A stretch of 64,000 nucleotides of DNA. Source: Flavobacteriales bacterium (lineage in GTDB: Bacteria > Bacteroidota > Bacteroidia > Flavobacteriales_F > PHOS-HE28). Location of the stretch: positions 2,000 to 65,999 of the forward strand of contig DAOKZW010000001.1 of the NCBI GenBank assembly GCA_035325445.1. Direction: 5' to 3'. Below, piece by piece: positions 33,078 to 56,840 of the stretch. A program made the translations under genes and the position numbers. The notes beneath the pieces were generated by a model. The model was given only the letters and a program-made list of their open reading frames with translations. It had not been told where the DNA came from and made no database searches. The number at the start of each line of letters is the position of its first letter. The stretch's first letter is position 1.

Positions 33078-33689
33078 TCAATCCTGACGTACTTCGGGAT
33101 CCGTGACGTAATCCTTCACCCGTTCCCTGAGATAGAGGAATGCAAAAGGCAGTATGAGGGCACAGATGCCCAATGACACCCATGTAATGCCATTTGCGGC
33201 AATCACTATGGGCATGGCTATGAGCAGAGCCAATCCCGATACGCCTAATGGAAACAAGTTCGATAGGTCCCTTCGGGCAACGCAGAACAGCACATCGTCC
33301 AGCACCGAATCATAGCTCTTTCCCGGCTTGACCACAGGTCTGGTACCATTCACGGCGAGCGCTTCCTTGTTTCGGATTTCTTGCATCATCTCCCACTGCT
33401 TCGCCTTCGGAAACCGCAGCGGCTCATGGCGCACCAGCAGGCGGTGCATCCGATAATAGGCGATACGCGTATCCTCATACCGCAGGACTTCAAATCCCTT
33501 GCGGATGGACAGGAGTGCTTCATGGTCACCAGTGGGAATCACCTGCTTACACCTGCGCAGAAACTGGCGGAGGAGATGGATGTCCGAAAATCCAGGATCT
33601 ACGCCAAGAACGGCATAGTAGTTCGCCAAGATCAATGAATCAGATCCGTTCACGTTCCCGGTGCGAGCAACTTCTGCATGGTGCTCCAT
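33078..33689 (-). CDS. J-domain-like membrane protein (degenerate DnaJ domain, no HPD)
   Basis: NYYAVLGVDPGFSDIHLLRQFLRR resembles a J-domain helix II, but HPD is replaced by IPTGDH. Two C-terminal TM helices. Confidence 0.35.
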   Translation of the reverse strand: MEHHAEVARTGNVNGSDSLILANYYAVLGVDPGFSDIHLLRQFLRRCKQVIPTGDHEALLSIRKGFEVLRYEDTRIAYYRMHRLLVRHEPLRFPKAKQWEMMQEIRNKEALAVNGTRPVVKPGKSYDSVLDDVLFCVARRDLSNLFPLGVSGLALLIAMPIVIAANGITWVSLGICALILPFAFLYLRERVKDYVTDPEVRQD

Positions 33690-33694
33690 GTACC

Positions 33695-34960
33695 CTACAT
33701 ATTCCTCCTGTACTGCCCACCAACCTCAAACATGGCGGAGGTAAGCTGGCCGAGGCTACAGTACTTACACGCTTCCATCAGCACCGCAAACATGTTCTCG
33801 TTGCGGACCGCCGCCTGTTGGAGATCGTGCAAAGCTTTGGTGCTTTCCGCCGCGTAAGCGACCGTGAGGTTTTCCACGGTATGGATCTGATCCTCCTTTT
33901 CCTCTTCGGTGGCGCGGATCACCTCCTTGGGGATGATGGTGGGTGAGCCGCTGCTGCTGAGGAAGGTATTGACGCCCATGATGGGGTATTCGCCGCTGTG
34001 CTTGAGGCGCTCGTAGTAGAGGCTTTCCTCCTGGATCTGGCCGCGCTGGTACATGGTTTCCATGGCGCCCAGCACGCCGCCGCGCTCGGTGATGCGGTCG
34101 AACTCACTGAGCACGGCCTCTTCCACCAGGTCGGTGAGCTCCTCGATGATGAAGCTGCCCTGCAAGGGATTTTCGTTCTTGGCCAGGCCGAGCTCGTGGT
34201 TGATGATGAGCTGGATGGCGAGGGCGCGGCGCACGCTTTCCTCGGTGGGCGTGGTGATGGCCTCGTCGTAGGCGTTGGTGTGCAGGCTGTTGCAGTTGTC
34301 GTAAATGGCGTAGAGCGCCTGCAGCGTGGTGCGGATGTCGTTGAAATCGATCTCCTGCGCGTGCAGGCTGCGGCCGCTGGTCTGGATGTGGTACCGTGGG
34401 TGCCACTGCGGGCCTCGCTCCGGCATCACCGCCTTCGGCGGCCCTTCGGGCGAGCGCGCTCCTTGCGCCATACCGCGTTGCTTCCTCGGTCAGCTACCGG
34501 TTACGGTAGCCTCCCTCGTCGCGCCTTGTCTGGCACAAAGATCATCGCTCGTGCTTGCCGTTCGAGGCCCACAGAGGCACCCTGGCATCTGGCTGCGCTA
34601 TTCTCTGATCGAAGAACAGAAGGCGCGCCTGCCTGCCGAAGCGTCTTCGCGAAGGCATGGCCACGCGGCCCATCACGGCATACTCGGGGTCCATGCCGTT
34701 GCTGAAGAAGAAGCTCAGGTTCGGAGGGAAGGCGTTGATGTCCATGCCCCGACTGAGGTAGTACTCCACGTAGGTGAAGCCGTTCGCCAGCGTGAAGGCG
34801 AGCTGGCTGATGGGGTTGGCGCCGGCCTCCGCTATGTGGTAGCCGCTGATGCTTACGCTGTAGAAGTTGCGCACCTTCTTGTCGATGAAGTACTGCTGCA
34901 CGTCGCCCATGAGGCGCAGCGCGAACTCGGTACTGAAGATGCAGGTGTTCTGCGCCTGGT
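33695..34960 (-). pseudogene. Silent 3' copy A of icmF (mutase substrate-binding domain C-terminus), split by a ~270-nt insertion (track ORFs 33695..34471 and 34542..34910)
   Basis: Near-identical at protein level to the last ~360 aa of the intact icmF ([30 protein letters not shown]...[17 protein letters not shown]). There is no upstream coding continuation and the homology stops at ...TTCTGCGCCTGGT. Confidence 0.85.
34393..34662. mobile_element. MITE-like insertion inside icmF copy A
   Basis: ~270 nt replace 67 nt of the icmF sequence. Imperfect terminal inverted repeats (GGGTGCC-CTG-GGGCCTCG) flank an internal core shared with the insertion in copy B (CCTTCGGGCG.GCGCGCTC ... GCTACC-loop-GGTAGCCTCCCT ... 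GATCATCGC). Confidence 0.5.
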
Positions 34961-34989
34961 GGGTATGCCCGCCCTGAGCTTGTCGAAGG

Positions 34990-35160
34990 GTTGGGCGTGC
35001 CCCGGCTCAAATGCAGCCGGGTCGCGTGCTACGCTGTAGCCGGACTTGTCAGGGCCAGCGACTGCGGCACTTCGGGGTCACTCCTTCGTCGTGCCTCCTC
35101 GTTGCTCGCATCCACAAGGCCCTGCCTGTGCCGGGCTGGCGCTTCGCCCGCTCACGCAAC
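34990..35160. repeat. Conserved ~170-nt element X at the island-side boundary of icmF copy A
   Basis: It is ~90% identical to 40338..40510 next to copy B. It begins exactly where icmF homology ends and contains the hairpin CCCGGCT-CAAATGC-AGCCGGG. It is non-coding and lies ~150 nt upstream of the first plus-strand gene of the island. Confidence 0.55.
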
Positions 35161-35311
35161 GCACATTTGTTCTACCCAGCGTTGAACCTAGTAGGCAAGG
35201 TCTTGGCCCGTTATGAACAAATTGTTTGTATCTGATGCGTCAGTTCGTATACTTGTTCAGAGTAACAGAACGTTTTGCCGACGAACCGTAATGCAATAAG
35301 ACCAGACCACC

Positions 35312-37168
35312 ATGGCCGAACTCGAAGTACCCAAAGATGTTCCGTGGCACCTGCTATGCACAAGCCAAGACATGATGGACCCGAAGTTCTGCAACAAGAG
35401 CTTCCCATTCCCGTGGCGTTCATCGCTGGCAATATCCGCCTATGAAGTTCCGGAAGAGGACTTGCCGGAACCCTTCTGCAATGGCCGCCTGACCTACGTC
35501 AAACTGACCCTTTCCATCACGGGCTACCAACCCACGGATCAAGAAATTGAAGATGCCTATGTACAGTTCGGCAACACACCCGTTGAAGCCAACCTGGACG
35601 ACATCTTCGCAGAATACTTTGGGTGCTATGGGGCACTGCTCAACGTGGCCTTCTTTCCCAACTCAGCCCAGAGTTGGCCCACAAAGGACTTCCCTCGGAT
35701 CATCGCCATGGAACCCAAGGTTCGGGAGTTGATCCAAAGCGCCACGGAGTCGGGTGAGCTTTTGACCGCGACAAAGGGCAGCCTTTCGACTACGAAGACC
35801 AATTCGACCACGCGGGAAACGAAGACGGGGATCAAGGCCGATCTGGAGTCACCCATTCCAACCTTTGGAACTGATAAAGGGAAGGCAACATTGGGGTTTA
35901 CCCACAATTGGGGTCGGACACAGCAGGACACGTATCAGACAGTGGCCAATGCCTCCGATGAGCGTTCGGAGAAGGAAGGCCATACTACACAGCTTGAACA
36001 GCTGTACAACTTCTTGGCGGCTTATCATCAGGGCACCAACCGTGGCGTATTCCTGATGCTTCCCCGGCCCCACATCCTGCAACCCACCGACCGCAGGACT
36101 TTCGTGCAGGGTGTCCGTTCGATCGAAGGAATTCAGGAGTTCTTCCTCGCTGTGGTGCGACCTGCCGACATGGAAGGCATCTGCATCGAGGCCAGCTTGG
36201 ATACGGGGCATTTTCCGGAGGATGCTCGGATACTCCCTCCATTACCGAACTACCACGAAAAGACGGAAACCTTCATAATAGACAAGCATGTGCCCAACGG
36301 TGGCGGGCCGTGGGGGAGTGGGCAGCAGGTGTCCCTCAACCATACCCATACTGTTGCATCCGGATGGGTAGTGGACCAACGAACGTTCCCCTTCCCTCCA
36401 TTCCCCAAGGGTGATCCGGGACACATCGGCGTATCCGATCACATTGTCTCACAGAATTCCCAAGGCGCGCCGCAGAACTACAACTATCAGGCGACCAGCG
36501 CAACCACGGTGCAGGTCAGTGGTCATATTCAAAGTGGTACTTGGGGGATCGGGCATGGTGCCATTTTCAAGCATCTGTACACAGTGCATTGTCGTTCTGT
36601 GAACGAGATCGAATCCGACTTCCAGAACCTTCACCGGATCTCCGATCTGCTGATCACTTCCCGGAACCTGTGCTGCTGTTTCTATAAGGGGGCCACAGCA
36701 TGCCTGATCCAAGGCCCTGTGCCGCCCACGCCGCCCACGCCGGTGCCGGATACCCCATACAGCAGGATCGTGGAGCAGCGCGAATTGAAGATCCCCGCAA
36801 GCCTGCTTTCCGACCCGATCGCCGGAAAGAGCTTGGAACCGGCGACCAAAGGACTGCTGCGTGAATTGAAGGCGATCATGTCCACCAGCCGGGATGGCCG
36901 GTTCTCGCATACCAAGGATGGCATCAACTACCTGCAATCCGACCACTTCATCCGCAGGGTCATCGCCAAGTACCCCAAGGAGATAAGGGACGAGTTGTTG
37001 CGCAATGTCCCGGGCCTATCACCACACGTGGTGGATGCCTTTGGTAGCGAGGGCACGGTGGAAGAGGCGCTCTCGGTGACGCTGGCCAAGTTCATGGTCC
37101 GGACCGGCTTGGACCTGTCGAAATCTCTCGACGAACGGCAGTTGCTCATCAACCTGATAAAACGTTGA
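35312..37168 (+). CDS. Hypothetical 618-aa orphan protein (low-GC island)
   Basis: Long ORF with an ATG start and a GC content clearly below its surroundings. No signal peptide or recognisable catalytic motif. Its central Ser/Thr/Gly-rich alternating stretch is suggestive of beta-hairpins. Confidence 0.5.
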   Translation: MAELEVPKDVPWHLLCTSQDMMDPKFCNKSFPFPWRSSLAISAYEVPEEDLPEPFCNGRLTYVKLTLSITGYQPTDQEIEDAYVQFGNTPVEANLDDIFAEYFGCYGALLNVAFFPNSAQSWPTKDFPRIIAMEPKVRELIQSATESGELLTATKGSLSTTKTNSTTRETKTGIKADLESPIPTFGTDKGKATLGFTHNWGRTQQDTYQTVANASDERSEKEGHTTQLEQLYNFLAAYHQGTNRGVFLMLPRPHILQPTDRRTFVQGVRSIEGIQEFFLAVVRPADMEGICIEASLDTGHFPEDARILPPLPNYHEKTETFIIDKHVPNGGGPWGSGQQVSLNHTHTVASGWVVDQRTFPFPPFPKGDPGHIGVSDHIVSQNSQGAPQNYNYQATSATTVQVSGHIQSGTWGIGHGAIFKHLYTVHCRSVNEIESDFQNLHRISDLLITSRNLCCCFYKGATACLIQGPVPPTPPTPVPDTPYSRIVEQRELKIPASLLSDPIAGKSLEPATKGLLRELKAIMSTSRDGRFSHTKDGINYLQSDHFIRRVIAKYPKEIRDELLRNVPGLSPHVVDAFGSEGTVEEALSVTLAKFMVRTGLDLSKSLDERQLLINLIKR

Positions 37169-37171
37169 ACC

Positions 37172-37531
37172 ATGGCCATACAAGCAAAAGACATCATGGG
37201 CAAATGGGAGTTCACTGAAACCTTTATCGAGAGCAAGTCCATCCCGGTAGAGGCGCAGTGCTTTTACGACCTCGGTTTCGGCGGCTCCTTTACGTGTACG
37301 ACGATTGATAATGGGGTCAAAGTGGACATCCATGTACACGGACGATGGAGCTTTGATGAAAACAACGCCCAAATGGAGTTGGTCTTCAAGAGGGATGAGG
37401 ACTTGGGACTGCCTGACAGGCACTATCTGTGTGAGGTCACCAATGCGGACAACAGCACGCTCAAGTTCTCCTACAAGGACGTGAATGGGATCACCTCACA
37501 TGCCGTGCTCAAAGCGGTGGTACCCACATGA
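37172..37531 (+). CDS. Lipocalin-like domain protein
   Basis: 119 aa with the N-terminal GKWEF motif typical of lipocalin-like beta-barrel domains. It begins 4 nt after the upstream stop. Confidence 0.5.
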   Translation: MAIQAKDIMGKWEFTETFIESKSIPVEAQCFYDLGFGGSFTCTTIDNGVKVDIHVHGRWSFDENNAQMELVFKRDEDLGLPDRHYLCEVTNADNSTLKFSYKDVNGITSHAVLKAVVPT

Positions 37532-37601
37532 ACCATTCCGTGCAGATACGGCACCATTTTGCCCGGTTGGCACAGATTGTGGAACCAACGGAGAGGAAGA
37601 T

Positions 37602-38168
37602 ATGAGCGCATGGGGCAAGTATTTGGTGGTAGGCATGTTCATGTTTTGGAATGCGTGCAGTTCCCGGAAAATAGCTTTCATCCCCACGGAACCTGTTTCA
37701 CTGCCCACCGCTGAGGCTCTGCCTTACTCGTTCTGCCTGAGTGTTTCGGATGTGAAGGACACCATGCACATAGTGAGCCGCTATGCCGTGGTCCATGATG
37801 TCCGGCGCACCACAGCATTCGCGCTTGAGAAAGCCTTCGAGGCTTCGTTTCCATTGGTGCGAACCGATGGTGCCAACAACTGCCTCATGCTGAGGGTGGT
37901 TTCCGTGGCGGTGGACTATCGTCCGGTTGAACACTATCAGCACAGGCGATCGGATGGTTCTTCGAGCACCCAGCAGGTCTTCTTGGTCGATGTGGCATAC
38001 AAGGCCCTGCTGTACAATGCGGACACGCTCATTGCCGTGTTCGACAACGTCGTAAGCCATACCGAACTCAACACGTTCCGCAAGAACTTGAAAAGAGGCA
38101 TGGAACTGATGGCCGAAGATCTGAATGCCAAGGTGGTCCGGTTCATGCTGGGGCAGAAGGATGAATGA
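37602..38168 (+). CDS. Hypothetical lipoprotein
   Basis: The signal peptide and lipobox region (MSAWGKYLVVGMFMFWNACSS) were chosen as the start within track ORF 37485..38168. Confidence 0.35.
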   Translation: MSAWGKYLVVGMFMFWNACSSRKIAFIPTEPVSLPTAEALPYSFCLSVSDVKDTMHIVSRYAVVHDVRRTTAFALEKAFEASFPLVRTDGANNCLMLRVVSVAVDYRPVEHYQHRRSDGSSSTQQVFLVDVAYKALLYNADTLIAVFDNVVSHTELNTFRKNLKRGMELMAEDLNAKVVRFMLGQKDE

Positions 38169-39043
38169 ACGGCCATGGCACCATGTGGACGATGCGCGGA
38201 TATATCGCCGTTACCACGGTCTTAATGACCATCCATGTCAGCGGCCAGTACATCTTGAACGGCGACTTCGAGATCAACAACGCCACACCGGGGGCGAACG
38301 AGATGAACATGACCAATGCCCAGTTCAATGCAATGGTCCCGGATTGCTTCAGCTTCGCTCAACCCGGATGGGCCCAGTTGGATCTGATCACGACGGCGGA
38401 ATGGGGTGGCCTTGCCCATAGCGGTGATCGCTTCATTGGGATGGGTTGGACGGATCGCCTTGCCATGCGGCTTTCAGAGCCATTGACCATCGGACAGACC
38501 TACCAACTCTCGTTCCATGAAAGAGGGTATTCCGGGGCATGTACGGGCGGGTTCTCCATTGGCCTGTCATCCACCCCCTCCAGCATGGGCACCTATATCC
38601 ATAACACCTCCCTTTTCCCGGTGGTGGGCGTCTGGAAATTGCGTGTGTTCTCCTTCGTCGCCCCAGTGGCGGCGGACTACATCACCGTGCTCATGTCCGG
38701 TTTTGTGGGCTGCTGGCAGCACGTTGATAATTTCTGTCTATCAGCCACTTCCGATTGCGCAATCCCGACCGTGATCCATGTGCCGAATGTGTTCACACCC
38801 AATGCGGATGGTGTCAACGACCGTTTCTTGCCATTCGCCGGGACGGACATCACCGGTGGATCCATGGAGATCTACAACCGTTGGGGCGACATGATCTTCA
38901 GCACTGAAGACATCGACAGCGGATGGGATGGCACCACTGATGAGCAGCCATGCTCGAATGGCGTCTACTTCTATCGCCTTTCCTACACAACGGTCTTTGG
39001 CGCGAGCGAGAGCAAACACGGGTCCTTCACATTACTGAGATAA
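38165..39043 (+). CDS. Secreted protein with type B T9SS sorting domain (gliding motility-associated C-terminal domain)
   Basis: The C-terminal ~90 aa match the TIGR04131-type CTD (VPNVFTPNADGVNDRF...IYNRWGDMIF...WDGT...NGVYFYRL...GSFTLLR). The N-terminal signal may begin at MRGYIAV (38192). Confidence 0.6.
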   Translation: MNGHGTMWTMRGYIAVTTVLMTIHVSGQYILNGDFEINNATPGANEMNMTNAQFNAMVPDCFSFAQPGWAQLDLITTAEWGGLAHSGDRFIGMGWTDRLAMRLSEPLTIGQTYQLSFHERGYSGACTGGFSIGLSSTPSSMGTYIHNTSLFPVVGVWKLRVFSFVAPVAADYITVLMSGFVGCWQHVDNFCLSATSDCAIPTVIHVPNVFTPNADGVNDRFLPFAGTDITGGSMEIYNRWGDMIFSTEDIDSGWDGTTDEQPCSNGVYFYRLSYTTVFGASESKHGSFTLLR

Positions 39044-39079
39044 AACTGGGGAACTCTTTCAGCACCACCTTCGCGTTGG

Positions 39080-40338
39080 TTACATATTCCTCCTATACTG
39101 TCCCCCCACTTCGAACATCGCAGCCGTCAACTGCCCCAGCGAGCAAAACTTCGTCGCTTCCATCAATACCTCGAACATGTTCTCGTTCCGGATCGCGGCT
39201 TGTTGCAGATCCTTGATCGCCTTGGCCGCTTCATCCGCATAAGCAGTTCGGAGATTCTCCACGGTCGCGATCTGGGCTTCCTTCTCTTCTTCCGTTGCCC
39301 GAATGACCTCTTTCGGGAGAATTGTAGGTGACCCCTTGCTCGACAGGAAGGTATTCACCCCGATGATCGGATACTCGCCCGTGTGCTTGAGCGTTTCGTA
39401 GTAGAGGCTTTCCTCCTGGATCTTGCCGCGCTGGTACATCGTCTCCATGGCGCCGAGCACGCCGCCGCGTTCAGTGATGCGGTCGAACTCCTTCAGCACG
39501 GCTTCTTCCACCAGGTCGGTGAGTTCCTCGATGATGAAGCTGCCCTGCAGCGGGTTCTCGTTCTTGGCCAGGCCGAGCTCGCGGTTGATGATGAGCTCTC
39601 GGGTACCACACCGCACCCCGTTCCGGCGCCATGGCGGCACAGCCGCCACCCTTCGGGCGGGCGCGCTCGTCCGCCCATGCTGCGTTGCTCGGCGGTCGGC
39701 TACCTCGTGGTAGCCTCCCTTCCTCGCGCCTTGCCTGGCCGAACGATCATCGCCCGTGGCATCCGTTCGGGGCACGGCGTGGTACCCTGAGGCCATGGCG
39801 CGGCGCACGCTTTCCTCGGTGGGCGTGGTGATGGCCTCGTCGTAGGCGTTCGTGTGCAGGCTGTTGCAGTTGTCGTAGATGGCGTAGAGCGCCTGCAGGG
39901 TGGTGCGGATGTCGTTGAAGTCGATCTCTTGCGCGTGCAGGCTGCGGCCGCTGGTCTGGATGTGGTACTTCAGCATCTGGCTGCGCTCGTCGGCGCCGTA
40001 GCGGTGCTTGAGGGCTTTGGCCCAGAGGCGGCGCGCCACGCGACCCATCACGGCGTATTCGGGGTCCATGCCGTTGCTGAAGAAGAAGCTCAGGTTGGGC
40101 GCGAAGGCGTTGATGTCCATGCCCCGGCTGAGGTAGTACTCCACGTAGGTGAAGCCGTTGGCCAGGGTGAAGGCGAGCTGCGAGATGGGGTTGGCGCCGG
40201 CCTCTGCGATGTGGTACCCGCTGATGCTGACGCTGTAGAAGTTGCGGACCTTCTGGTCGATGAAGTACTGCTGCACGTCGCCCATCAAGCGCAGCGCGAA
40301 CTCGGTGCTGAAGATCGTTGTTCTGCGCCTGGTGGTTC
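39080..40338 (-). pseudogene. Silent 3' copy B of icmF with a ~190-nt in-frame insertion (track ORF 39080..40288)
   Basis: 402-aa ORF nearly identical to the intact IcmF C-terminus, except for a 63-aa insert between EESVRRAMA and LIINRELG. Homology to the intact gene ends at the same point as copy A. Confidence 0.85.
39603..39789. mobile_element. MITE-like insertion inside icmF copy B
   Basis: 187 nt bounded by GGTACC-containing ~24-bp imperfect terminal inverted repeats (GGGTACCACACCGCACCCCGTTCCGG / CCGTTCGGGGCACGGCGTGGTACCC). The internal hairpin GGCTACC-TCGT-GGTAGCC covaries with the copy A version GCTACCG-GTTA-CGGTAGC. Confidence 0.55.
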
Positions 40339-40510
40339 TTTGGGCGTGCCCCGGCTCAAATGCAGCCGGGTCGCGTGCTGCGCTTTAGCCGGTCTTGTCA
40401 GGGCCAGCGGCTGCGGCACTGCGGGGTCACGCCTGCGTCGTGCCGCCTCGTTGCTCGCATCCGCAATGCCCTTCCTGCGCCGGGCTGCCGCTTCGCCCGC
40501 TCACGCGGAG
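40338..40510. repeat. Conserved ~170-nt element X at the island-side boundary of icmF copy B
   Basis: Second copy of the element at 34990..35160. It starts where the icmF homology ends and is followed ~50 nt later by the first gene of the heavy-metal island. Confidence 0.55.
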
Positions 40511-40557
40511 AACACGCTTGCGATCTCAACCGTTGAAGCCTACATTCGTCCCGGAAA

Positions 40558-40923
40558 ATGCGTCGCCTCCTTTTCCTGCTCACCCTTACGGTCTATGGCT
40601 TCAGTGCCCTGGAACTGCACGAGTGGCTGCATGTGCCGCAAGTGGTGATGCACTTTCTGGAGCAGCATACCAGTGAGGACTTCCACGACCTCTTCCACAA
40701 CGAGCACACCGACGATCAGCAACACGATGAGCACGACCACGATCCGTTCAGCGAGGATTGCCACGGCGAGTTCTGCGCGTGCAGTGGCCTGGTCGCGCTT
40801 TCACCGGTGAACAGGTCTCTCCTGATCTCCCTACAGCCGCTCACCACCAAGGTGGGTGCGCAATTCCTCAACGTTGCGCCCAGTGGTTTCACGGGCAACG
40901 TGTGGATCCCTCCCAAGGCTTGA
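40558..40923 (+). CDS. His/Asp/Cys-rich small secreted protein (putative periplasmic metal-binding protein), first gene of the metal efflux cluster
   Basis: Signal peptide (MRRLLFLLTLTVYGFSA), a His-rich stretch (HNEHTDDQQHDEHDHD) and a CxxxxCxC cluster. Confidence 0.4.
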   Translation: MRRLLFLLTLTVYGFSALELHEWLHVPQVVMHFLEQHTSEDFHDLFHNEHTDDQQHDEHDHDPFSEDCHGEFCACSGLVALSPVNRSLLISLQPLTTKVGAQFLNVAPSGFTGNVWIPPKA

Positions 40924-41036
40924 GTTGATCCGCCCTTCGGCGGAACGGGAACGCACCGTGCTTCGGCACGGTCCGGGGCCATTGTGTACCCGCGTTCCGC
41001 ATTCGTCCTTCCTTCCATTCCCAAGTTTTTCCATCC

Positions 41037-44000
41037 ATGATCGACAGGATCATCCGGTTCTCCATACACAACAAGGCCATCATCGGGCTCTTCACGCTCG
41101 TGCTGGTGCTTTACGGGGCGTACTCGCTCACGCAATTGCCGATCGATGCGGTACCCGACATCACCAACAACCAGGTGCAGGTGATCACCACCACGCCTAC
41201 GCTGGCCGCGCAGGAGGTGGAACAGTTCGTTACCGCGCCCATCGAGCGGGCCATGGCCAGCCTGCCCGATCTGGTGGAGATCCGCTCCATCAGCCGCTTC
41301 GGGCTAAGTCTTGTGACCATCGTATTCGATGAGGACGTGGACGTGTACTTCGCCCGCACCTTGGTGGACCAGCGCCTGGGCGAGGCCGCCGCACTGATAC
41401 CGCCCGGGGTGGGCACACCGACCATGGCCCCGGTAAGCACCGGGTTGGGCGAGGTGTACCAATACGTGCTGCACCCCAAGGAAGGGTACGAGGGCACCTT
41501 CAGCCCCAGCGAGCTGCGCACCATCCAGGAATGGATCGTAGTGCGGCAGCTGTTGGGCACACCCGGTGTGGCCGAGGTGAACAGCTACGGCGGCGAGGTG
41601 AAGCAGTACGAGGTGAGCGTGGACCCCAAGCGCTTGCAAAGCATGGGCGTCACCATCGGTGAGCTACTGCTCGCGTTGGAGAGCAACAACGAGAACACCG
41701 GCGGCGCCTACATCGAGAAACGGCCCAACAGCTACAGCATCCGGGGCGAAGGACTGCTGCGCACGCTGGACGACATCCGCAAGGTGGTGGTGAAGATCCC
41801 GCCCGGCGGTGTGCCGCTCCTGGTGGGCGATGTGGCCGAGGTGGGCTTCGGTGCGGCCCCGCGCTACGGTGCGCTCACCCGCAATGGCGAAGGCGAAGCG
41901 GTGGGCGGCACGGTGATGATGCTGAAGGGTGGCAACAGCGCCGAAGTGGTGAAGGCTATTGAAGCGCGCATACCGAACGTGCAGAAGGCCCTGCCGGAAG
42001 GGCTGATGATCGAACCCTATCTGGTGCGCAGCGAACTGGTGGGGCGGGCCATCGGCACGGTGAAGACGAACCTGATCGAGGGCGCGTTGATCGTGATCTT
42101 CGTGCTGGTGCTCTTTCTAGGAAATTGGCGCGCGGGCCTCATCGTGGCCTCGGTGATCCCACTGTGCATGCTCTTCGCCATCATCCTCATGAACGCCTTC
42201 GGCGTCAGCGGCAATTTGATGTCGCTTGGTGCCATCGATTTCGGATTGATCGTGGACGGCGCCGTGATCATCGTGGAGGCCACCCTGCACCACCTGCATG
42301 CGCGCTTCAAGGGAAGGATCCTTACCCGCGAGGAGATGGACCGCGAGGTTTTCGTGAGCGCCAGCAAGATCCGGACGAGCGCGGCCTTCGGCGAGATCAT
42401 CATCCTGATCGTGTACATCCCCATCCTCACACTGGTGGGCATCGAGGGCAAGATGTTCCGCCCCATGGCCATCACCGTCAGCTTCGCCATCCTGGGTGCC
42501 CTGTTGCTCTCGCTCACCTATGTGCCCATGATGAGCGCGCTGGTGCTGCCGCGCAACACGGCGCACAAACCCAACTTCAGCGACCGCATGATGGACCGTT
42601 TCCAGAAGTGGTACGATCCCATCATCGGCTTCGCCTTGCGCAACCGGATCAAGACCGTGGGTGTGGCCGTGGCGCTCTTCATCAGCTCGGTCTTCCTGTT
42701 CGCACGCATGGGCGGCGAGTTCATTCCCACCTTGGAAGAGGGCGACTTCGCCTTCCACAGCATCCTGCCGCAGGGCGCATCGCTCAGCCAGAGCATCGCC
42801 AACAACGCCAAGGTGGAGAAGATCCTGCTGCAATTCCCGGAGGTGAAGCAGGTGGTGGGACGCACCGGCAGCGCCGAGATCCCCACGGACCCCATGCCCC
42901 CCGAAGCCACGGACCTCATGATCATCTTGAAGGACAAGGACGAATGGACCACCGCGCACGACCGCGAGGCTTTGCAGGACACCATGCTGCAAGCCTTGAG
43001 GCAGGTACCCGGCGTGTTCTACGAAGCCACCCAACCCATCCAGATGCGCTTCAACGAATTGATGACCGGCATACGGCAGGACGTGGCCGTGAAGATCTAC
43101 GGTGAGAACATGGACACCCTCGCGGTGATCGCGAACAAGGTGGCGGCGATCATCGGCGAAGTGCAAGGTGCGGGTGAACCGCAGGTGGAAAAGGTGGTGG
43201 GCCTGCCACAGATCACCATCACCTATGATCGTGCACGGGTAGCGCAGTACGGCCTCAACATCCGCGAACTGAACCGCACCGTGCGCACGGCCTTCGCGGG
43301 CGAGGCCACCGGCGTCATCTACGAGAACGAGCGCCGCTTCGATCTGGTGGTGCGCCTCGGTGACCAACAGCGGCAGAGCATCGACGATGTGCGCACCCTC
43401 TTCGTGGCGCTGCCCGGTGGCGGACAGATCCAGTTGCAGCAGGTGGCCGATGTGTCCTTGACACCCGGCCCGGCCCAGATCAGCCGGGAGGATGCCAAGC
43501 GCCGCATCGCCGTGGGCGTGAACATCCGTGGCCGTGACGTGGAAAGCTTCGTGGAAGAGCTCCAAGGCCGCATCGATGCCGAAGTGCCAATGCCCGCGGC
43601 CTACTACTACACCTTCGGCGGCACCTTCGAGAACCTGCAGGCAGCTAGCAAACGCCTGATGCTGGCGGTGCCCATCGCGCTGGCCCTCATCTTCCTGCTG
43701 CTCTTCTTCACCTTCAACAGCGTGAAGCGCGCCCTGCTGATCTACACCGCCATCCCCATGAGCGCCATCGGCGGTGTGCTTGCGCTCATGGCGCGCGGCA
43801 TGCCCTTCAGCATCAGCGCGGGCGTGGGCTTCATCGCGCTCTTCGGCGTGGCGGTGCTCAACGGCATCGTCCTCATCGCCACCTTCGACCAACTGGAAAA
43901 GGAAGGCATCAGCGACCTGAAGGAGCGCGTGTTGAAAGGTACCCGCACACGGCTGCGTCCCGTGCTGATGACGGCGGCGGTGGCCTCGCTCGGTTTCCTG

Positions 44001-45359: not shown

Positions 45360-45371
45360 GACCGCATAGAC

Positions 45372-46751
45372 ATGAAAACGCAACCGATCAACAGCGCTCT
45401 TCAGCGCATGCCGAATACGCTCTTTCTGCTCCTGCTCACCATCGCACTGGCCGCCTGTGGCGGTGGCGCGGCCTCCGGCGAAGAAGAAGGCCATGGCCAC
45501 GGCGAAGAGGAGGGCCACGGCGGTGGGAGCACCGTCACCGTTTCGCCGCAACAATTCGCCGCCATCGAGGGCAAGCTTGGCAAGGTGGAGATGAAGGACC
45601 TCACCACCGCCCTCAAGGCCGTCGGCTTTTTGAAAGTGCCGCCGCAGAACGTCGCCGACATCACCGTGGCCATGGGAGGCACCGTGCGCGAAGTGCTGGT
45701 GCAGGAAGGCGACCATGTGAACAAGGGGCAGGTGCTCGCTACGGTCACCGACCCTTCGATCATCCAACTGCAACGCGACTACCTCGATGCGAAAGCACGA
45801 CTGGTGTACGCCGAAACGGAATTGGAACGCCAGACCGAACTGGCCCGCGCCAACGTGAGCGCGCAGAAGACCCTGCAACAGGTCACGGCGGAACACGCCT
45901 CCTTGCGGGCCAGCGTGAACGCCCATGCCGAGCAGTTGCGCCTGATCAACATCGACCCCGAGAAGCTCACTGCCAATGCACTGCGCTCAGCCGCGGGCAT
46001 CGTAAGCCCCATCGATGGCACCGTGGCGCACATCGCGGTGAACGTGGGAAGCAAGGTGAGCAACGATGCCACAATGTTCCGCGTGGTGAACAACAGCAAG
46101 CTCCACGTGGACCTCTTCCTCTACGAACAGGACATCGCCTCCGTGAAGGTGGGCCAGACCATCGACCTCAGCCTCACCAACCTGCCGGGCAAGAACTACA
46201 CGGCCGTGGTCTTCGCCATCGGCAGTGCCTTCGAACGCGAGACGAAGACGATCCCGGTGCACGCGGAGATCACCGGCGACAAAGTGGGCCTGATCGACGG
46301 CATGGGCGTTACCGGGCGCATCAGCGTAGGCAACGCCACCACCACCGCCGTGCTCACCGAGGCCATCGTGAACATGGAAGGCAAGGACTACGTGTTCATC
46401 AGGACCGAAGGTGAAGAGGAGCATGGGCACGGGCATGATGAAGAGCCCGCGCACAAGGAGGAACCGGCGCACAAACACACCGAAGGGGAAGCACACGATC
46501 ACGCGAAGGAGAACAAGGCAACCCATGCACAAGGTGAGGTGCACGAACATGACCATAGCGATGAACATGCGCACGAGGCCGCAACCGGCAGCATGAGCTT
46601 CCAACGCATCGAAGTGAAGCGTGGAACGACCGATGGCGCGTACACAGCAGTAACCTTCCTGCAACCGGTGGACCCGGACGCCGAAGTGGTGACCGGTGGC
46701 GCCTACTACCTGATCGCGATGATGAACACGAGTGAAGGACACGAGCATTAA
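45372..46751 (+). CDS. Efflux RND periplasmic adaptor subunit (CzcB/HlyD family) with His-rich termini
   Basis: Lipoprotein signal (LLLTIALAACGG), a biotinyl-lipoyl/beta-barrel MFP core, and His-rich stretches at the N-terminus (EEGHGHGEEEGHGG) and C-terminus (HGHGHDEE...HEHDHSDEHAHE). Confidence 0.8.
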   Translation: MKTQPINSALQRMPNTLFLLLLTIALAACGGGAASGEEEGHGHGEEEGHGGGSTVTVSPQQFAAIEGKLGKVEMKDLTTALKAVGFLKVPPQNVADITVAMGGTVREVLVQEGDHVNKGQVLATVTDPSIIQLQRDYLDAKARLVYAETELERQTELARANVSAQKTLQQVTAEHASLRASVNAHAEQLRLINIDPEKLTANALRSAAGIVSPIDGTVAHIAVNVGSKVSNDATMFRVVNNSKLHVDLFLYEQDIASVKVGQTIDLSLTNLPGKNYTAVVFAIGSAFERETKTIPVHAEITGDKVGLIDGMGVTGRISVGNATTTAVLTEAIVNMEGKDYVFIRTEGEEEHGHGHDEEPAHKEEPAHKHTEGEAHDHAKENKATHAQGEVHEHDHSDEHAHEAATGSMSFQRIEVKRGTTDGAYTAVTFLQPVDPDAEVVTGGAYYLIAMMNTSEGHEH

Positions 46752-46755
46752 GATC

Positions 46756-48636
46756 ATGAGCACCCATCATTCCCTCGCTGCTCGTTCCACCTGGCGGACC
46801 TACCTGCCTGCTATTGTTTCGTTCATCCTGCTCCTCAGCGGCATCGCCATCGACCAGCTGGCACCGCAGCTCTGGCAACAGGCATGGTGGCGTTTCGCCT
46901 GGTACTTGGCCGCGTACCTGCCGGTAGGCTGGCCGGTGCTGGTGAATGCGGTACGTACCATCGCGAAGGGCGCGGTCTTCAGCGAGTTCTTCCTGATGAG
47001 TTTGGCCACCATCGGCGCGTTCTACATCGGCGAGTACCCCGAGGGCGTGGCGGTGATGCTGTTCTATGCCGTGGGTGAACTGTTCCAGAACGCCGCCGTT
47101 GATCGGGCCAAGCGCAATATCCAGGCCTTGCTGGATGTACGTCCGGATACCGCGAACGTGCTGCGCGACGGCATCCCGGTGGAAACGCCCGCTGCTGAGG
47201 TGAAGGTCGGTGACATCCTCCGCATCCGCGTGGGCGATCGCGTGCCGTTGGACGGAAAACTCCTGAGTGAAAAAGCGTCGTTCGATACCGCCGCGCTCAC
47301 CGGTGAGAGCGTGCCGCGCACCATCGTGAACGATGCGCCGGTGCTTGCTGGCATGATCGCTGCGGACAAGGTGGTGGACATGGAAGTGACCAAACCCTTT
47401 GGCGAGAGCAGCCTCGCACGCATACTGGATCTGGTGCAGAACGCCGCCAAGAGCAAGGCACCAACGGAGCTCTTCATCCGCCGCTTCGCCCGCATCTACA
47501 CACCCATCGTGGTGGCGCTCGCCGTGGGCATCGTGCTGGTGCCCATGTTGGTTGTGGAGTCCTACGACTTCAACAGTTGGCTATACCGTGCCCTCATCTT
47601 CCTAGTGATCTCCTGCCCATGCGCACTGGTCATCAGCATTCCGCTGGGCTACTTCGGTGGCATCGGCGCAGCCAGCCGCAAGGGCATCCTGCTGAAGGGT
47701 GGCAACTACCTCGATGTGCTCACCAAGGTGAACACCGTGGTGATGGACAAGACCGGTACGCTCACCGAGGGCGTGTTCGCTGTTCAGGAGGTGAAGCCTG
47801 CGGAAAGTGCAAGCGCGGAACAACTGCTCGGCGTGGTGAAGGCCATGGAAGCGCACAGCACGCACCCCATCGCAAAGGCCGTGTTGGAACATCCGCAAGG
47901 CGATGCCGTGGGCGAGGCCACGAACGTGGAGGAGATCAGCGGCCACGGTATGCGCGGTACGGTGCAGGGCAAGGAGGTGCTGGTGGGCAATGCGCGCCTC
48001 TTGAAGAAGTTCAACGTGTCCTATCCTGCGGACGTGGATACCGTCGAGGATACCATCGTGGTGTGTGCGATCGGCGGCAGCTACGCGGGCTACATCACCG
48101 TTGCCGATAAGGTGAAAGCGGACGCACAGCAGGCGGTGAACGAACTGCGTGCATCGGGCGTGCGCGAGATCGTGATGCTCAGCGGCGACAAGACGGCCAT
48201 CACGCAGCGCGTCGCGGCCAAGCTGGGTATCCACAAGGCCTTCGGCGATCTGCTGCCGGAAGATAAAGTATCGAAGATGCAGCAGGTGAAGAAGGACCCT
48301 ACCGCCGTGGTGGCCTTCGTGGGCGACGGCATCAATGATGCGCCGGTGCTCGCGCTCAGCGATGTGGGTATCGCCATGGGCGGCCTGGGCAGCGATGCGG
48401 CCATCGAGACCGCTGATGTGGTGATCCAGAACGACCAGCCCTCGCGGATCGCCGAAGCCATCCGCATCGGCCGGGCCACCAAGCGGGTGGTCACGCAGAA
48501 CATCGTACTCGCTTTCGGCGTGAAGGCGATCGTCCTGATCCTCGGCGCGGGAGGATTGGCCACCCTATGGGAAGCGGTGTTCGCCGATGTGGGTGTGGCG
48601 CTGTTGGCGATACTTAACGCGAGCAGGATGCGGTGA
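46756..48636 (+). CDS. Heavy-metal translocating P1B-type ATPase (Zn/Cd/Pb-type CPC)
   Basis: Motifs are TGES, transmembrane CPC (ISCPCALVISIP), phosphorylation site DKTGTLT and hinge GDGINDAP. There is no N-terminal HMA domain. The start is set at MSTHHS. Confidence 0.9.
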   Translation: MSTHHSLAARSTWRTYLPAIVSFILLLSGIAIDQLAPQLWQQAWWRFAWYLAAYLPVGWPVLVNAVRTIAKGAVFSEFFLMSLATIGAFYIGEYPEGVAVMLFYAVGELFQNAAVDRAKRNIQALLDVRPDTANVLRDGIPVETPAAEVKVGDILRIRVGDRVPLDGKLLSEKASFDTAALTGESVPRTIVNDAPVLAGMIAADKVVDMEVTKPFGESSLARILDLVQNAAKSKAPTELFIRRFARIYTPIVVALAVGIVLVPMLVVESYDFNSWLYRALIFLVISCPCALVISIPLGYFGGIGAASRKGILLKGGNYLDVLTKVNTVVMDKTGTLTEGVFAVQEVKPAESASAEQLLGVVKAMEAHSTHPIAKAVLEHPQGDAVGEATNVEEISGHGMRGTVQGKEVLVGNARLLKKFNVSYPADVDTVEDTIVVCAIGGSYAGYITVADKVKADAQQAVNELRASGVREIVMLSGDKTAITQRVAAKLGIHKAFGDLLPEDKVSKMQQVKKDPTAVVAFVGDGINDAPVLALSDVGIAMGGLGSDAAIETADVVIQNDQPSRIAEAIRIGRATKRVVTQNIVLAFGVKAIVLILGAGGLATLWEAVFADVGVALLAILNASRMR

Positions 48637-48657
48637 GGGTTCTGGAACATAACTTGC

Positions 48658-49095
48658 GTGGCTACGAACATGAAACAGCTGACCACCCTGCTCTTTGCCT
48701 TTTGCACACTAGGCCTATCTGCACAAACCGGTGCAGTTTCCCCGCCCGCCAAAGGCAAGAAGACCGCCACCATCGCCATCCAGAGCACTGGCATCTGCGA
48801 TATGTGCGAGAAGACCATCGAGACCGAACTCGTCTATACCAAGGGCGTGAAGAAGGTGGATGTGGACCTCAGCACCGCTGCCGTGAGCGTGACCTACGAT
48901 CCGCGCAAGACCGACGCGGACAAATTGCGTGCAGCGCTCACCAAGCTGGGGTACTCCGCCGATGGCACACCCGGTGATGCAGCCGCCTTTGCCAAATTGC
49001 CCCAGTGCTGCCAGAATGAAGGCTGCGGCAAGTTGCCGGTGAAGCAATCAAGCTTCATTGGGCCATGCCGACGCAGGTGCGGCCATACTACGTAG
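48658..49095 (+). CDS. Heavy-metal-associated (HMA) domain lipoprotein / metallochaperone
   Basis: Signal peptide (LLFAFCTLGLSAQ), a ferredoxin-like HMA fold with the metal-binding site GICDMCE (CxxC) and a C-terminal Cys-rich tail (CCQNEGCGK...CRRRCGH). Confidence 0.7.
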   Translation: MATNMKQLTTLLFAFCTLGLSAQTGAVSPPAKGKKTATIAIQSTGICDMCEKTIETELVYTKGVKKVDVDLSTAAVSVTYDPRKTDADKLRAALTKLGYSADGTPGDAAAFAKLPQCCQNEGCGKLPVKQSSFIGPCRRRCGHTT

Positions 49096-49418
49096 CAGAG
49101 TTGCGCAAGAGCGAAGAGGCTCGCACGCTCGGCGATCTGCAACTCGAATGGCACCATCTCGAGCGGGCCCATATTCTCGGCCAGCGTTGGCCCTTGGAGC
49201 ACAACGCGGTGCATTGGCGCATGCTGAAGTTCGGGTTCCGTACCAAGAACATGCGCGAGATCATCGGACAGTTGCCGCGTCTGGTCTTCGGTGGGGTGAA
49301 GAGCTTCGTGGGCACGGTGCCGATCGGGAATACGGGCGGAGCGAATGTGCCGGCGCTGAAGCCGCTGGCGTTACCAGACGACCTAGCAGCGATACTCAAT
49401 GACACCTTTGCCGTGTGA
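49065..49418 (+). CDS. DUF3703 domain protein
   Basis: 117 aa with the characteristic blocks HLERAHILGQ and GNTGGANV. Confidence 0.55.
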   Translation: MPTQVRPYYVAELRKSEEARTLGDLQLEWHHLERAHILGQRWPLEHNAVHWRMLKFGFRTKNMREIIGQLPRLVFGGVKSFVGTVPIGNTGGANVPALKPLALPDDLAAILNDTFAV

Positions 49419-49473
49419 TCGATAGTGCGATCACCGTGTCCGAGAGTGAATGGAGTATCGGGCCCTTCGCGGG

Positions 49474-52400
49474 TCACATATTCCGCCGATACTGCCCCCC
49501 CACCTCGAACATCGCCGCAGTCAACTGCCCGAGCGAGCAATACTTCGTCGCCTCCATCAGCACGGCGAACATGTTCTCGTTCCGGATGGCCGCTTGCTGC
49601 AGGTCCTTGATCGCCTTCGCCGCTTCCGCGCTGTAGGCCGCGCGTAGGTTCTCCACCGTCGCAATCTGCGCTTCCTTCTCTTCCTCGGTGGCGCGGATCA
49701 CCTCCTTGGGCAATACCGTCGGTGAGCCCTTGCTGCTGAGGAAGGTGTTCACGCCGATGATCGGGTATTCGCCCGTGTGCTTGAGGGTCTCGTAGTACAA
49801 GCTCTCTTCTTGGATCCTGCTGCGTTGGTACATCGTTTCCATCGCTCCCAAGACACCACCGCGCTCCGTGATCCGGTCGAACTCGGTGAGCACGGCTTCT
49901 TCCACCAGGTCGGTGAGCTCTTCGATGATGAAGGAGCCTTGGAGCGGGTTCTCATTCTTGGCCAGGCCGAGCTCCTTGTTGATGATGAGCTGGATGGCCA
50001 TGGCGCGGCGCACGCTTTCCTCGGTGGGCGTGGTGATGGCCTCGTCGTAGGCGTTGGTGTGCAGGCTGTTGCAGTTGTCGTAAATGGCATACAGCGCCTG
50101 CAACGTGGTGCGGATGTCGTTGAAGTCGATCTCCTGCGCGTGGAGGCTGCGACCGCTGGTCTGGATGTGGTACTTCAGCATCTGGCTGCGCTCGTCGGCA
50201 CCATAGCGATGCTTGAGCGCCTTGGCCCAGAGGCGGCGCGCCACGCGGCCCATCACGGCGTACTCTGGGTCCATGCCGTTGCTGAAGAAGAAGCTCAGGT
50301 TGGGCGCGAACGCGTTGATGTCCATGCCCCGGCTGAGGTAGTACTCCACGTAGGTGAAGCCGTTGGCCAGGGTGAAGGCGAGCTGGCTGATGGGGTTGGC
50401 GCCGGCCTCCGCGATGTGGTAGCCGCTGATGCTGACGCTGTAGAAGTTGCGGACCTTCTTGTCGATGAAGTATTGCTGCACGTCACCCATCAAGCGCAGC
50501 GCGAACTCGGTGCTGAAGATGCAGGTGTTCTGCGCCTGGTCTTCCTTGAGGATGTCGGCCTGCACGGTGCCGCGGACCTGCTGGAGGGTGTCGGCTTTGA
50601 TCTTGGCGTAGACGTCGGCGGGCAACACCTGGTCGCCGGTGATGCCTAAGAGCATTAGTCCGAGACCGTTGTTTCCCTCCGGGATCTCGCCATGGTACTG
50701 GGGCCGCAAGCCGCTAGCTCCAAGCTTCAAGCTTGAGGCTTGTGGCTTATGGCTTGCTGCTCCCCATCGTGCAGCGATCTTCTTCTCCACCTCGGCCTCG
50801 AGCCCGTTGGCGCGGATGTACTTCTCGCAGTTCTGGTCGATGGCGGCGTTCATGAAGAAGCCGAGGAGCATGGGCGCGGGACCGTTGATGGTCATGCTCA
50901 CGCTGGTCTTGGGGTCGCTGAGGTCGAAGCCGCTGTAGAGCTTCTTGGCATCGTCCAGGCAGCAGATGCTCACACCGCTGTTGCCCACCTTGCCGTAGAT
51001 ATCGGGACGGCGGCCGGGATCGTTGCCGTAGAGCGTTACACTGTCGAAGGCGGTGCTGAGGCGCTTGGCGGGCATGCCCTGGCTCACGTAGTGGAAGCGC
51101 TTGTTGGTGCGCTCGGGGCCGCCCTCGCCGGCGAACATGCGCGCGGGGTCCTCGCCGGTACGCTTGAAGGGATAGATGCCGGCGGTGTAAGGGAAGAAGC
51201 CCGGCGTGTTCTCCTGCATCGCCCAGCGCACCTTGTCGCCCCAGCTGCGGAATTTGGGCAGGGCCACCTTGGGGATCTTCAGGTGGCTGAGGCTTTCGGT
51301 GTGGTTGGGCACCTTGATCTCCTTGCCGCGCACGGTGTAGGTGTAGAACTCGTCGCTGTACCGCTTCTCCTCGCTCTTCCAGTTGCTGAGCATGGCCCAG
51401 AGGTGGGGGTCGAGGTCTTTTTTGAGGTCGTGGAATCGAGCAGTCAAGGCTTCAAGCTCCGGGCCTCGGGCCGCAGGCTTCGCAGCCGGGCCCGTGGCCT
51501 GTGGCTTGTGGCCTGTGGCCTCTTCCAAGAGATCCGGCCCACCGAAGGTTAGCACCGCGGAATACAAGCCGTAGAGCTGGTCGGCGATGCGGGCCTGCTG
51601 GTCCACACGCTGGTCGTAGCGGCGGTTGTTCTCGCTGATCTCGCTGAGGTAGCGGGTGCGGGCCGGCGGGATGATCCACACCTTCTCGCTCATCTCGTCG
51701 TGGCCGTGGAACCGGCTGTGGAAGTCGGTGCCGGTCTTTTCGGCGATCGTCTTCATCAGCAGCGCGTACAGCTTGTTGGTGCCGGGGTCGTTGAACTGGC
51801 TGGCGATGGTGCCCACCACGGGGATGTCCTCGTCCTTGGCGTCGAAGAGCAGGTGGTTGCGCTTGAACTGCTTGCGCACGTCGCGCAGGGCGTCCTGGGC
51901 GCCGCGCTTGTCGAACTTGTTGATGGCCACCAGGTCGGCGTAGTCGAGCATGTCGATCTTTTCCAGCTGGGTGGCGGCGCCGAACTCGGGCGTCATCACG
52001 TAGAGGGCCACGTCGCTGTGGTCCATGATCTCGGTGTCGCCCTGGCCGATGCCGCTGGTCTCCAGCACGATCAGGTCGAAGCCTGCGGCGCGCAGCACTT
52101 GCAGGGCCTTGTCCACCTGGGCACTGAGGGAGAGGTTGCTGCCGCGCGTGGCCATGCTGCGCATGTAAACCCGCTCGCCGCGGATGCTGTTCATGCGGAT
52201 GCGGTCGCCCAGCAGGGCCCCGCCGGTCTTGCGCTTGCTGGGGTCCACGCTGATGATGCCGATGGTCTTGTCCGGCTGATCGAGCAGGAAGCGCCGCAGC
52301 AGCTCATCCACCGTGCTGCTCTTGCCCGCGCCGCCTGTGCCGGTGATGCCCAGCACCGGGGCCTTGTTCTTGTCGGCCAGCTTCTTCAGCTCCGCCTCCG

Positions 52401-52953
52401 CCTTGCTGAACACGTCGGGATGGTTCTCGGCCACGCTGATCAGACGCGCGATGGCCGTCCAGTTCGTGGTGTCCAGCTTCTTCACCTCGCCATTCAGCCG
52501 GTCGCTCAGGTCCACGTCGACCTGCTGCACCATGTCGTTGATCATGCCTTGCAGGCCCAAGGCACGGCCGTCATCGGGGTGGTAGATGCGCGTGATGCCG
52601 TAGGCCTCCAGGTCCTTGATCTCGCTGGGCAAGATGGTGCCGCCGCCCCCGCCGAAGATCTTGATGTGGCCCGCGCCCTTCTCCTTCAGCAGATCGAACA
52701 TGTACTTGAAGTACTCGTTGTGCCCGCCCTGGTAGCTGGTCATGGCGATGGCGTGGGCATCCTCCTGGATGGCGGTATTGACCACCTCGGCCACGCTGCG
52801 GTCGTGCCCCAGGTGGATCACCTCCACGCCGGTGCCTTGCAGGATGCGGCGCATGATGTTGATGGCCACGTCGTGCCCATCGAAAAGGCTGCCGGCGGTG
52901 ACCACGCGGATCTTGTTCTTGGGGATGTAGGGTGCTGCTACGGCTGTTGACAT
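49474..52953 (-). CDS. icmF: Fused isobutyryl-CoA mutase IcmF (B12-binding domain + MeaB-like G-protein chaperone + mutase substrate-binding barrel)
   Basis: 1159 aa. The N-terminal cobalamin-binding domain has DxHxxG ([10 protein letters not shown]). The central MeaB GTPase has P-loop [12 protein letters not shown] and an NKxD-like NKFD. The C-terminal part is a methylmalonyl-CoA-mutase-like TIM barrel ([15 protein letters not shown]...). Confidence 0.9.
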
Positions 52954-56826: not shown

Positions 56827-56840
56827 ACTACCTTCACACC

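Follow-up and report, generated by a model that had tools for sequence, protein, structure and literature searches.

The tandem accretion of remnants of integrative and conjugative or integrative and mobilizable elements (ICEs and IMEs), the cis-mobilizable elements (CIMEs), has been described at the 3' ends of protein-coding genes, such as fda of Streptococcus thermophilus with ICESt1/ICESt3 (PMC5704250). Islands of comparable construction are those built by tycheposons in Prochlorococcus (bioRxiv 10.1101/2020.12.28.424599) and the ssrA-targeted islands of Dehalococcoides (PMC3146451). Here we analyse a stretch of 64,000 nucleotides from a Flavobacteriales bacterium (assembly GCA_035325445.1, contig DAOKZW010000001.1, positions 2,000 to 65,999; hereafter, the window), in which the 3' end of icmF, the gene for a fused isobutyryl-CoA mutase/GTPase, is present three times and two unrelated cargo blocks appear to be stacked one behind the other, an arrangement that the sequence supports. 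Our conclusion is that the icmF end is probably an insertion hotspot in this Flavobacteriales-like clade, where cargo is stacked and former gene ends are displaced, with the balance tipping narrowly towards host homologous recombination as the means.

Like CIME arrays, the icmF locus has direct repeats of the target-gene end bracketing the units, units without recombination genes of their own stacked upon each other and a gene that stays intact. Unlike those arrays, whose att repeats are tens of bases long and whose cognate integrase is known, it has a repeat of 1,067 nt plus a conserved flank, the icmF loci examined yielded no integrase, and the cargo is not co-inherited with the long repeat. 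Repeated integration at the same site that pushes older units inward, partial copies of the target and adaptive cargo are shared with the tycheposon and ssrA islands, but these target tRNA or tmRNA genes, often keep tyrosine recombinases and have short repeats. Arrays of three relatives (L003, L004 and L170; loci of relatives carry our own numbers) are reminiscent of integrons in their small cassettes, some of them of varying position and several of them toxin-antitoxin pairs, mostly with a same-strand open reading frame (ORF) 1-14 nt past the repeat. The integron reading was nevertheless rejected, since the defining enzyme intI was not found: none lies beside the array, where the genes upstream of icmF are zeta-toxin-like, DUF937 and type IX secretion system (T9SS) cargo genes. 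The repeats, moreover, are copies of a gene end and not attC hairpins, no dyad symmetry being evident, as judged by eye only, in the direct repeats of 37-135 nt, and the window cargo is large and antisense to icmF. A diversity-generating retroelement was rejected as well, as no reverse transcriptase family was found among the scanned ORFs; the differences between the window repeats are mostly synonymous and include all kinds of change.

Homologous recombination within conserved sequence also installs DNA in the orphan toxin/immunity arrays behind rhs and cdiA, which displace the former tip together with a conserved piece, and in the 'minimal mobile elements' between conserved genes in Neisseria. 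At rhs and cdiA, however, the gene tip is variable, whereas at icmF the displaced tip is conserved and the variable part is unrelated cargo. The elements e14 and phage 21 in Escherichia coli icd, which carry a replacement 3' end of the gene, resemble the icmF units in supplying a new functional gene end and leaving the old one silent behind the element; they differ in that about 165 bp are replaced there, an integrase is encoded by the element itself and unrelated cargo is not stacked. Because the defining enzymes were not found, because repeat and flank are far longer than att duplications and because the cargo is not co-inherited, the icmF array is not assigned to any named family. The features on which the argument rests are as follows.

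49474..52953, minus strand: intact icmF (fused isobutyryl-CoA mutase/GTPase), 1159 aa (ORF, Pfam, NCBIfam)
49474..50540, minus strand: repeat unit within the intact icmF, codons 806-1159 plus stop, 1,067 nt (self-BLAST, three-way alignment, translation)
40507..49473, plus strand: island 1, heavy-metal module (Pfam, NCBIfam)
40334..40506, minus strand: flank B, conserved and non-coding, directly 5' of copy B, 87-92% identical to flank A
39080..40333, minus strand: silent copy B of the icmF end (alignments; two stretches match MM_CoA_mutase)
39598..39790, minus strand: palindromic insertion of ~190 nt in copy B (alignments, covariance model R1)
35158..39079, plus strand: island 2, GC ~0.55 (Pfam, NCBIfam, PHROGs)
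34961..35157, minus strand: flank A, conserved and non-coding, directly 5' of copy A (alignments)
33695..34960, minus strand: silent copy A of the icmF end, broken at 34395-34659 (alignments; residual ORFs match MM_CoA_mutase)
34395..34659, minus strand: insertion in copy A, a palindromic element (34395-34590) plus ~70 nt of unrelated sequence (alignments)
33078..33689, minus strand: ORF of 203 aa, starting 6 nt past the stop of copy A (ORF)
32885..33056, plus strand: inverted, diverged copy of the flank (nhmmer E=7e-35, alignments)

The product of the intact gene is the mutase IcmF and not the IcmF/TssM of the type VI secretion system: B12-binding, MeaB and MM_CoA_mutase domains lie on one chain (Pfam), the NCBIfam equivalog NF045497 'fused isobutyryl-CoA mutase/GTPase IcmF' is matched with 1749 bits against a cut-off of 1500, and family scans reported no secretion-type IcmF/TssM family for the 1159-aa ORF. 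A 393-aa 'fragment' on a long contig (P0016) proved to be just a split icmF. An initial annotation of the window had proposed three direct copies of the icmF end with a common boundary, and both points were confirmed by self-BLAST and the three-way alignment: the final 1,067 nt of icmF occur three times, all in direct orientation, and the homology to the intact gene ends at one identical base in copies A and B, ...ACCAGGCGCAGAAC in gene sense, at window 50540. The terminal motifs of the repeat are found exactly 3 times in the window, against 0 expected by chance, and in all three pairs identity is ~95% across the first 540 nt of the repeat and ~80% across the last 520 nt.

The silent copies proved to be more complex than initially described, two palindromic insertions, a conserved flank and an inverted flank having been overlooked. 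Copy B, which has a 2-nt deletion close to its 5' boundary, carries 193 nt in place of 4 nt (net +189 nt, or 63 codons, with the frame kept), and in copy A 265 nt stand in place of 66 nt of the gene. The two palindromic inserts lie at different sites and have rod-like cores that are 76% identical, with 13 compensatory base pairs; our own covariance model (R1) detected no further copy in the window and 17 loci. Orthologous insertions are present at both sites in the close relative L178, together on its one silent copy, and neither is seen in the silent copies of L083, L164, L172 and L175. Past the boundary common to A and B their homology extends for another 173-197 nt at 87-92% identity, and the same flank element occurs in L083, L172, L175 and L178. 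Its hairpin has a conserved loop (GCATTTG/CAAATGC) and stems that vary between loci in a compensatory manner; the flank may act as a terminator, as an origin of transfer or as a recombination end. The inverted flank copy, which in the window sits just past the 203-aa ORF, recurs in partial form immediately after the last icmF-end copy in L164 (1040-1190), L172 (8152-8197) and L004 (7530-7573), and at near-full length ~120 nt past the last icmF-end copy in L178 (6585-6749). Neither flank nor palindromic insert was matched in Rfam at gathering or E<=1 thresholds, nor was either detected in viral contigs by exact-pattern scans or in plasmids by BLAST.

The divergence of the three gene ends bears on where they came from. 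Their 3' halves differ at a proportion of synonymous sites (pS) of 0.59-0.61, with a ratio of nonsynonymous to synonymous divergence (dN/dS) of 0.05-0.09, and their 5' halves at a pS of ~0.2 with a dN/dS of 0.02-0.07. Among the intact icmF genes of different genomes of the clade, pS lies at 0.23-0.47 for the greater part of the gene and at 0.34-0.60 for this 3' portion, which places the 3' halves of the window copies at the top of the intact-gene range. Because divergence is at species level and accompanied by purifying selection, the three ends are likely to have evolved as working gene ends in different lineages, and the comparison fits imported, once-functional ends and not local duplicates. 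As a separate observation, pS among the intact icmF genes of the clade is at window 49996-50620 (gene positions 2335-2955) about half of that in the remaining gene (0.12-0.25 vs 0.23-0.47), and against outgroups it is saturated there just as in the remaining gene; recent recombination among species or an unusual constraint could account for the low values.

Relatives were gathered by scanning 80 species-representative genomes and metagenomes and by looking up genomic contexts. In 78 of the 80 genomes icmF is single and its end is not repeated, the exceptions being the two closest relatives. The one-island configurations that the initial annotation had anticipated exist in the close relative L178 and in the more distant L172, L175 and L083, and the case it had named as contrary evidence, silent copies without cargo, was not seen in any relative. 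L178, from an activated-sludge metagenome record, and L179 are ~95% identical to the window in shared DNA and have no island 2; the order in L178 is icmF, a variant of island 1, flank, one silent copy, a PIN cassette, a copy of 289 nt and the inverted flank. L175 and L176 carry a variant of island 1 that is 82-84% identical, has extra genes and is closed by flank and an uninterrupted copy, behind which lies a restriction-modification (RM) system related to that at 28-30 kb of the window. The island of L083, of 5 kb, is unrelated and yet is closed by the same flank, with the same boundary, and an uninterrupted 1.07-kb copy. The icmF-end copy of L164 is cut off by the contig start.

In L172, a Flavobacteriales metagenome-assembled genome (GCA_016716605.1), icmF is followed in turn by a restriction-enzyme-like cassette, a silent copy of ~480 nt, island 1, the flank, a 1.07-kb copy free of interruptions and part of an inverted flank. 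Over ~9 kb its island 1 matches that of the window at 94-99% identity, and its icmF, a conserved stretch of ~95% apart, at 79-86%; as the island is far more alike than the host gene, island 1 must have moved horizontally. The near-identity begins at GTGGGGGGGCAGTATCGGCGGAATATGTGA and runs on into island 1. On the far side, the 1.07-kb segment and flank are 86-94% identical against the 94-99% of the cargo, to which they are not tightly linked. L172 further shows, at 23845-24024, that the initial ~60 codons of icmF are repeated upstream of the complete gene, a HicA-type toxin-antitoxin pair lying between the two, and therefore in at least one genome DNA has been inserted at the 5' end of icmF as well.

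Shorter copies of the same gene end are found in the small-cassette arrays of L003, L004, L084, L170 and L171, where the sequence that closes each cassette is the last 37-135 nt of icmF (L170 additionally begins a copy of ~430 nt). All of these copies end exactly at the stop codon, the terminal ~37 nt are kept in every one, and the cassette ORFs, mostly on the icmF strand, start 1-14 nt past each copy's stop. The most extensive array, L004 1830-7573, has at least 9 copies of the last 85-135 nt separating small icmF-strand ORFs; three copies hold an extra 23-nt hairpin (CCCGGCTCGCAGGCCGGG), and the copies end in AGGAGGAATATGTAG, which resembles a ribosome-binding site and start codon for the next ORF. 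Cassettes change place between arrays: a DUF2281/PIN pair is the first cassette in L170 and the second in L003, and a two-gene unit takes second place in L084 and third place in L004. The end type of the PIN toxin-antitoxin cassette, …GTTGGGGG.CAGTACCG.CGCAACATGTGA, is distinctive and common to L170 and L003. It forms the end of the intact icmF in L170, with a typical host-type end behind the cassette, and an internal repeat in L003, which is the displacement pattern originally postulated, a new end on the gene and the old one behind. That an incoming unit restores the gene with its own 3' end is supported by this pair of loci and by the purifying selection on the window copies; for island 1 the claim is only weakly traceable, over the ~35-40 nt of gene end seen in the comparison with L172. 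Across all loci, silent copies measure from 37 to 1,067 nt, have at least seven different left boundaries and are mosaics.

Taken as topology, we consider it highly probable that cargo enters by recombination within the icmF 3' homology, that the gene stays whole, and that the former end is displaced downstream and decays. Each block is closed on its far side by one portable module, a flank of ~170-195 nt followed by icmF codons 806 to stop, and each addition would be a recombination event within the icmF 3' homology, the outcome being that the gene in front stays complete and ends in a new stretch, foreign but functional, while the previous end would lie downstream, silent and decaying as it acquires palindromic insertions and loses a few bases here and there. 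An incoming segment arranged as 'icmF - cargo - flank - silent copy' would pair by its left arm with the resident icmF. Were the right arm to pair with the resident flank and silent copy, the cargo would be swapped; were its partner the 3' portion of the intact resident gene, the cargo would be stacked, which would give the structure of the window without circle or integrase. An excised circle integrating Campbell-style would be an alternative route to the same product.

As regards the enzymology, which we infer, the host homologous-recombination route is a tentative choice, held with a little less than even confidence, and is narrowly favoured over a recombinase acting in trans. The homologous stretch carried by a unit, 1,067 nt with ~95% identity over the first 540 nt, is of the kind that such recombination can use. 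The route is favoured because the copies are mosaics and their lengths vary as widely as described; because the two palindromic insertions are re-assorted in L178; because L172 duplicates the 5' end of icmF as well, around a toxin-antitoxin pair; and because near-identity between the window and L172 is confined to the cargo, the two arms (on one side the icmF end apart from its last 35-40 nt, on the other the flank and silent copy, at 86-94%) being at background identity, as is expected of an exchange between two homologous arms. Homologous recombination is at least as likely as the site-specific, CIME-like attL/attR mechanism of the initial annotation. With one palindromic insertion per copy in the window and both on one copy in L178, no single recombination history was derived, and gene conversion between copies is the simplest patch.

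Several observations weigh against the homologous-recombination route, and most of them suit the same topology brought about by a site-specific recombinase that acts in trans, encoded elsewhere in the genome or on a helper element, with the crossover in the last ~35-40 nt of icmF. This, in essence the view of the initial annotation, is a serious contender, possible if somewhat doubtful; the units would then be integrase-less and CIME-like or integron-like, with the long silent copy and flank either passed on as ballast or acting as a further cis site. The gene-side breakpoint between the window and L172 at GTGGGGGGGCAGTATCGGCGGAATATGTGA is sharp, 35-40 nt before the stop codon, with near-identity running on into island 1, as expected of a fixed crossover site. 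The left ends of the short copies cluster, 6 of 11 beginning at the same base, G|CTGATGG, the terminal ~37 nt are retained even by copies of 37 nt, and the distinctive end type is shared by the toxin-antitoxin cassette of L170 and L003. The short repeats of relatives (37-97 nt, 75-90% identity) are poorly suited to RecA, whose efficient exchange calls for longer and more similar sequences, and decayed elements are well known to accrete in tandem at the 3' ends of genes (PMC5704250). Pfam scans of ORFs in the window, L003, L083 and L084, and precomputed Pfam lists of the genes called at the other array loci, showed no recombinase family, but this covers retrieved sequence of up to +/-10 kb, a range within which an enzyme acting from elsewhere need not fall. 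All data are metagenome assemblies, and no circular or empty-site junction was observed in them, the contigs from other runs just ending at the repeats. Finally, the low-divergence tract of icmF (pS 0.12-0.25 across the clade) begins ~80 nt upstream of where the module starts and so is no specific evidence of exchange driven by the module; the homogeneity of the repeat's 5' half is for that reason not attributable to the module, and the idea that a mobile module homogenises it was rejected, the region being conserved even in outgroups.

Against a recombinase in trans stands, in the first place, the lack of any recombinase family among the ORFs scanned and genes called at array loci that hold about two dozen cargo units, including the DNA between the window copies, where, in agreement with the initial annotation, no ORF of at least ~115 aa matches such a family; comparable systems usually keep some intact elements (bioRxiv 10.1101/2020.12.28.424599). 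Flank and silent copy would be part of the same circle as island 1 and yet are not co-inherited with it, the left boundaries are of at least seven kinds, the second duplication in L172 is at the other end of icmF, and a single clean breakpoint is available.

It is also conceivable, though unlikely, that flank and silent copy are a resident landmark that arose once in the ancestor of the clade, between whose fixed arms cargo has since been replaced, gained or lost with no insertion of whole elements, a second landmark having arisen in the window lineage by unequal crossing-over. The boundary and flank shared by copies A and B and by L083, L172, L175 and L178, the exchange of cargo independently of the arms, and the presence of one landmark in the close relative L178 and two in the window would be in keeping with this. 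A pS of ~0.6 between the 3' halves of A and B under purifying selection, however, would not result from local duplication of a single landmark, and the clade has many shorter copy types with other boundaries. This explanation overlaps heavily with stacking by homologous recombination and differs mainly in denying that incoming DNA does the stacking.

An assembly artefact is unlikely. For a chimera in which strain variants with different cargo behind icmF were chained via the shared icmF sequence, it can be said that every sequence is metagenomic, that the short contigs of other runs (Logan assemblies) break in or beside the repeats, and that the link across the insertion of copy B rests on long ENA contigs only. 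The window is part of a 98.7-kb metagenome contig, and the same gene order is found on three long ENA contigs; contigs of three other sequencing runs are 100% identical over the flank A/island 2/copy B and copy A/203-aa ORF junctions, and independent contigs show 100% identity over 35001-39565. Exact matches between copies reach at most 54-87 nt, less than the final k=141 of the assembler (as inferred from the contig name, k141_), and the succession icmF, island, flank and silent copy stands on single contigs of unrelated projects (L083, L172, L175 and L178). We therefore give the chimera very little credence.

That the icmF end was duplicated in tandem in situ, or as a target-site duplication of great length, and that its copies then diverged, is hardly credible and was rejected in spite of the direct orientation and identical boundary of the copies, because silent copies diverging in place should near neutrality, which is contradicted by a dN/dS of 0.02-0.09 at a pS of up to 0.6, and the 3' halves differ as much as between species of the clade, so that pS of ~0.6 under purifying selection rules it out.

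The gene contents of the two islands were, by Pfam and NCBIfam, as initially described, and are listed here.

Island 1 (plus strand)
40558-40923: ORF of 121 aa, His/Asp-rich
41037-45359: CzcA-OEP fusion
45372-46751: HlyD-type adaptor
46732-48636: heavy-metal P1B-ATPase
48658-49095: HMA protein
49065-49418: DUF3703 protein
Island 2 (plus strand)
35312-37168: orphan of 618 aa
37172-37531: ORF of 119 aa
37485-38168: ORF of 227 aa
38165-39043: T9SS type-B (CHU_C) protein

The 618-aa orphan and the other unassigned island ORFs matched no family in Pfam, NCBIfam or PHROGs. Island 1 is itself modular: relative to window 46751, L178 has ~3.5 kb of extra genes (15821-19338; MgtC, HXXEE and four unknowns) between adaptor and ATPase, and the variant of L175 has CrcB, a CDF transporter and a PAD_porph protein in addition.

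Downstream of copy A, backbone-type genes beginning with a J-domain gene had initially been described. The 203-aa ORF at that place matched no Pfam, NCBIfam or PHROGs family at E<=0.01, which leaves the J-domain unconfirmed; neither it nor the STAND gene has a homologue in ~170 related loci. The ORF is lineage-specific and probably cargo. The region behind it (window 23500-33000, GC 0.48-0.53) encodes an HNH nuclease, RhuM, a PIN_3 pair, a BsuBI/PstI-type RM system and a DS8-like STAND NTPase. The RM system is common to the window, L164 and L175, and the genes that separate it from the icmF copy differ in every genome. The DNA after copy A is variable and of defence type, not backbone. Upstream of icmF lie a zeta-toxin-like gene (53116-53946, minus strand) and, at 54976-60714, a WYL-domain gene, an nSTAND/AAA ATPase and a stand-alone M41 peptidase-domain gene adjoining ftsH; the DNA on that side, too, may be accessory.

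Literature searches turned up no relevant mention of icmF, or of isobutyryl-CoA mutase, as a target of integration; in environmental Bacteroidota the gene is a landing site of horizontally moving DNA that had not been reported before. The cargo includes a complete heavy-metal efflux module, which has passed between genomes that share only about 80-85% identity in icmF. Such units would be overlooked by island finders based on integrases, and gene callers annotate the silent copies as additional 'methylmalonyl-CoA mutase' genes. If host recombination alone is at work, a silent gene fragment of 1 kb is a portable homology arm and a simple, under-appreciated way to build stacked islands; if a recombinase in trans is responsible, this is a new cassette system. 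More speculatively, and with rather low expectation, the icmF end may anchor a cassette-capture system without an element-encoded integrase, served by host recombination or by one chromosomal recombinase acting ~35 nt before the stop, in which the gene end would be both recombination site and translation-coupling signal and the flank a second cis-acting site, e.g., a transfer origin or second recombination end. If true, cassette capture at icmF would be a functional analogue of the integron on a housekeeping gene, by which cargo ranging from 0.3-kb toxin-antitoxin cassettes to 9-kb metal-resistance islands would be installed, swapped and stacked.

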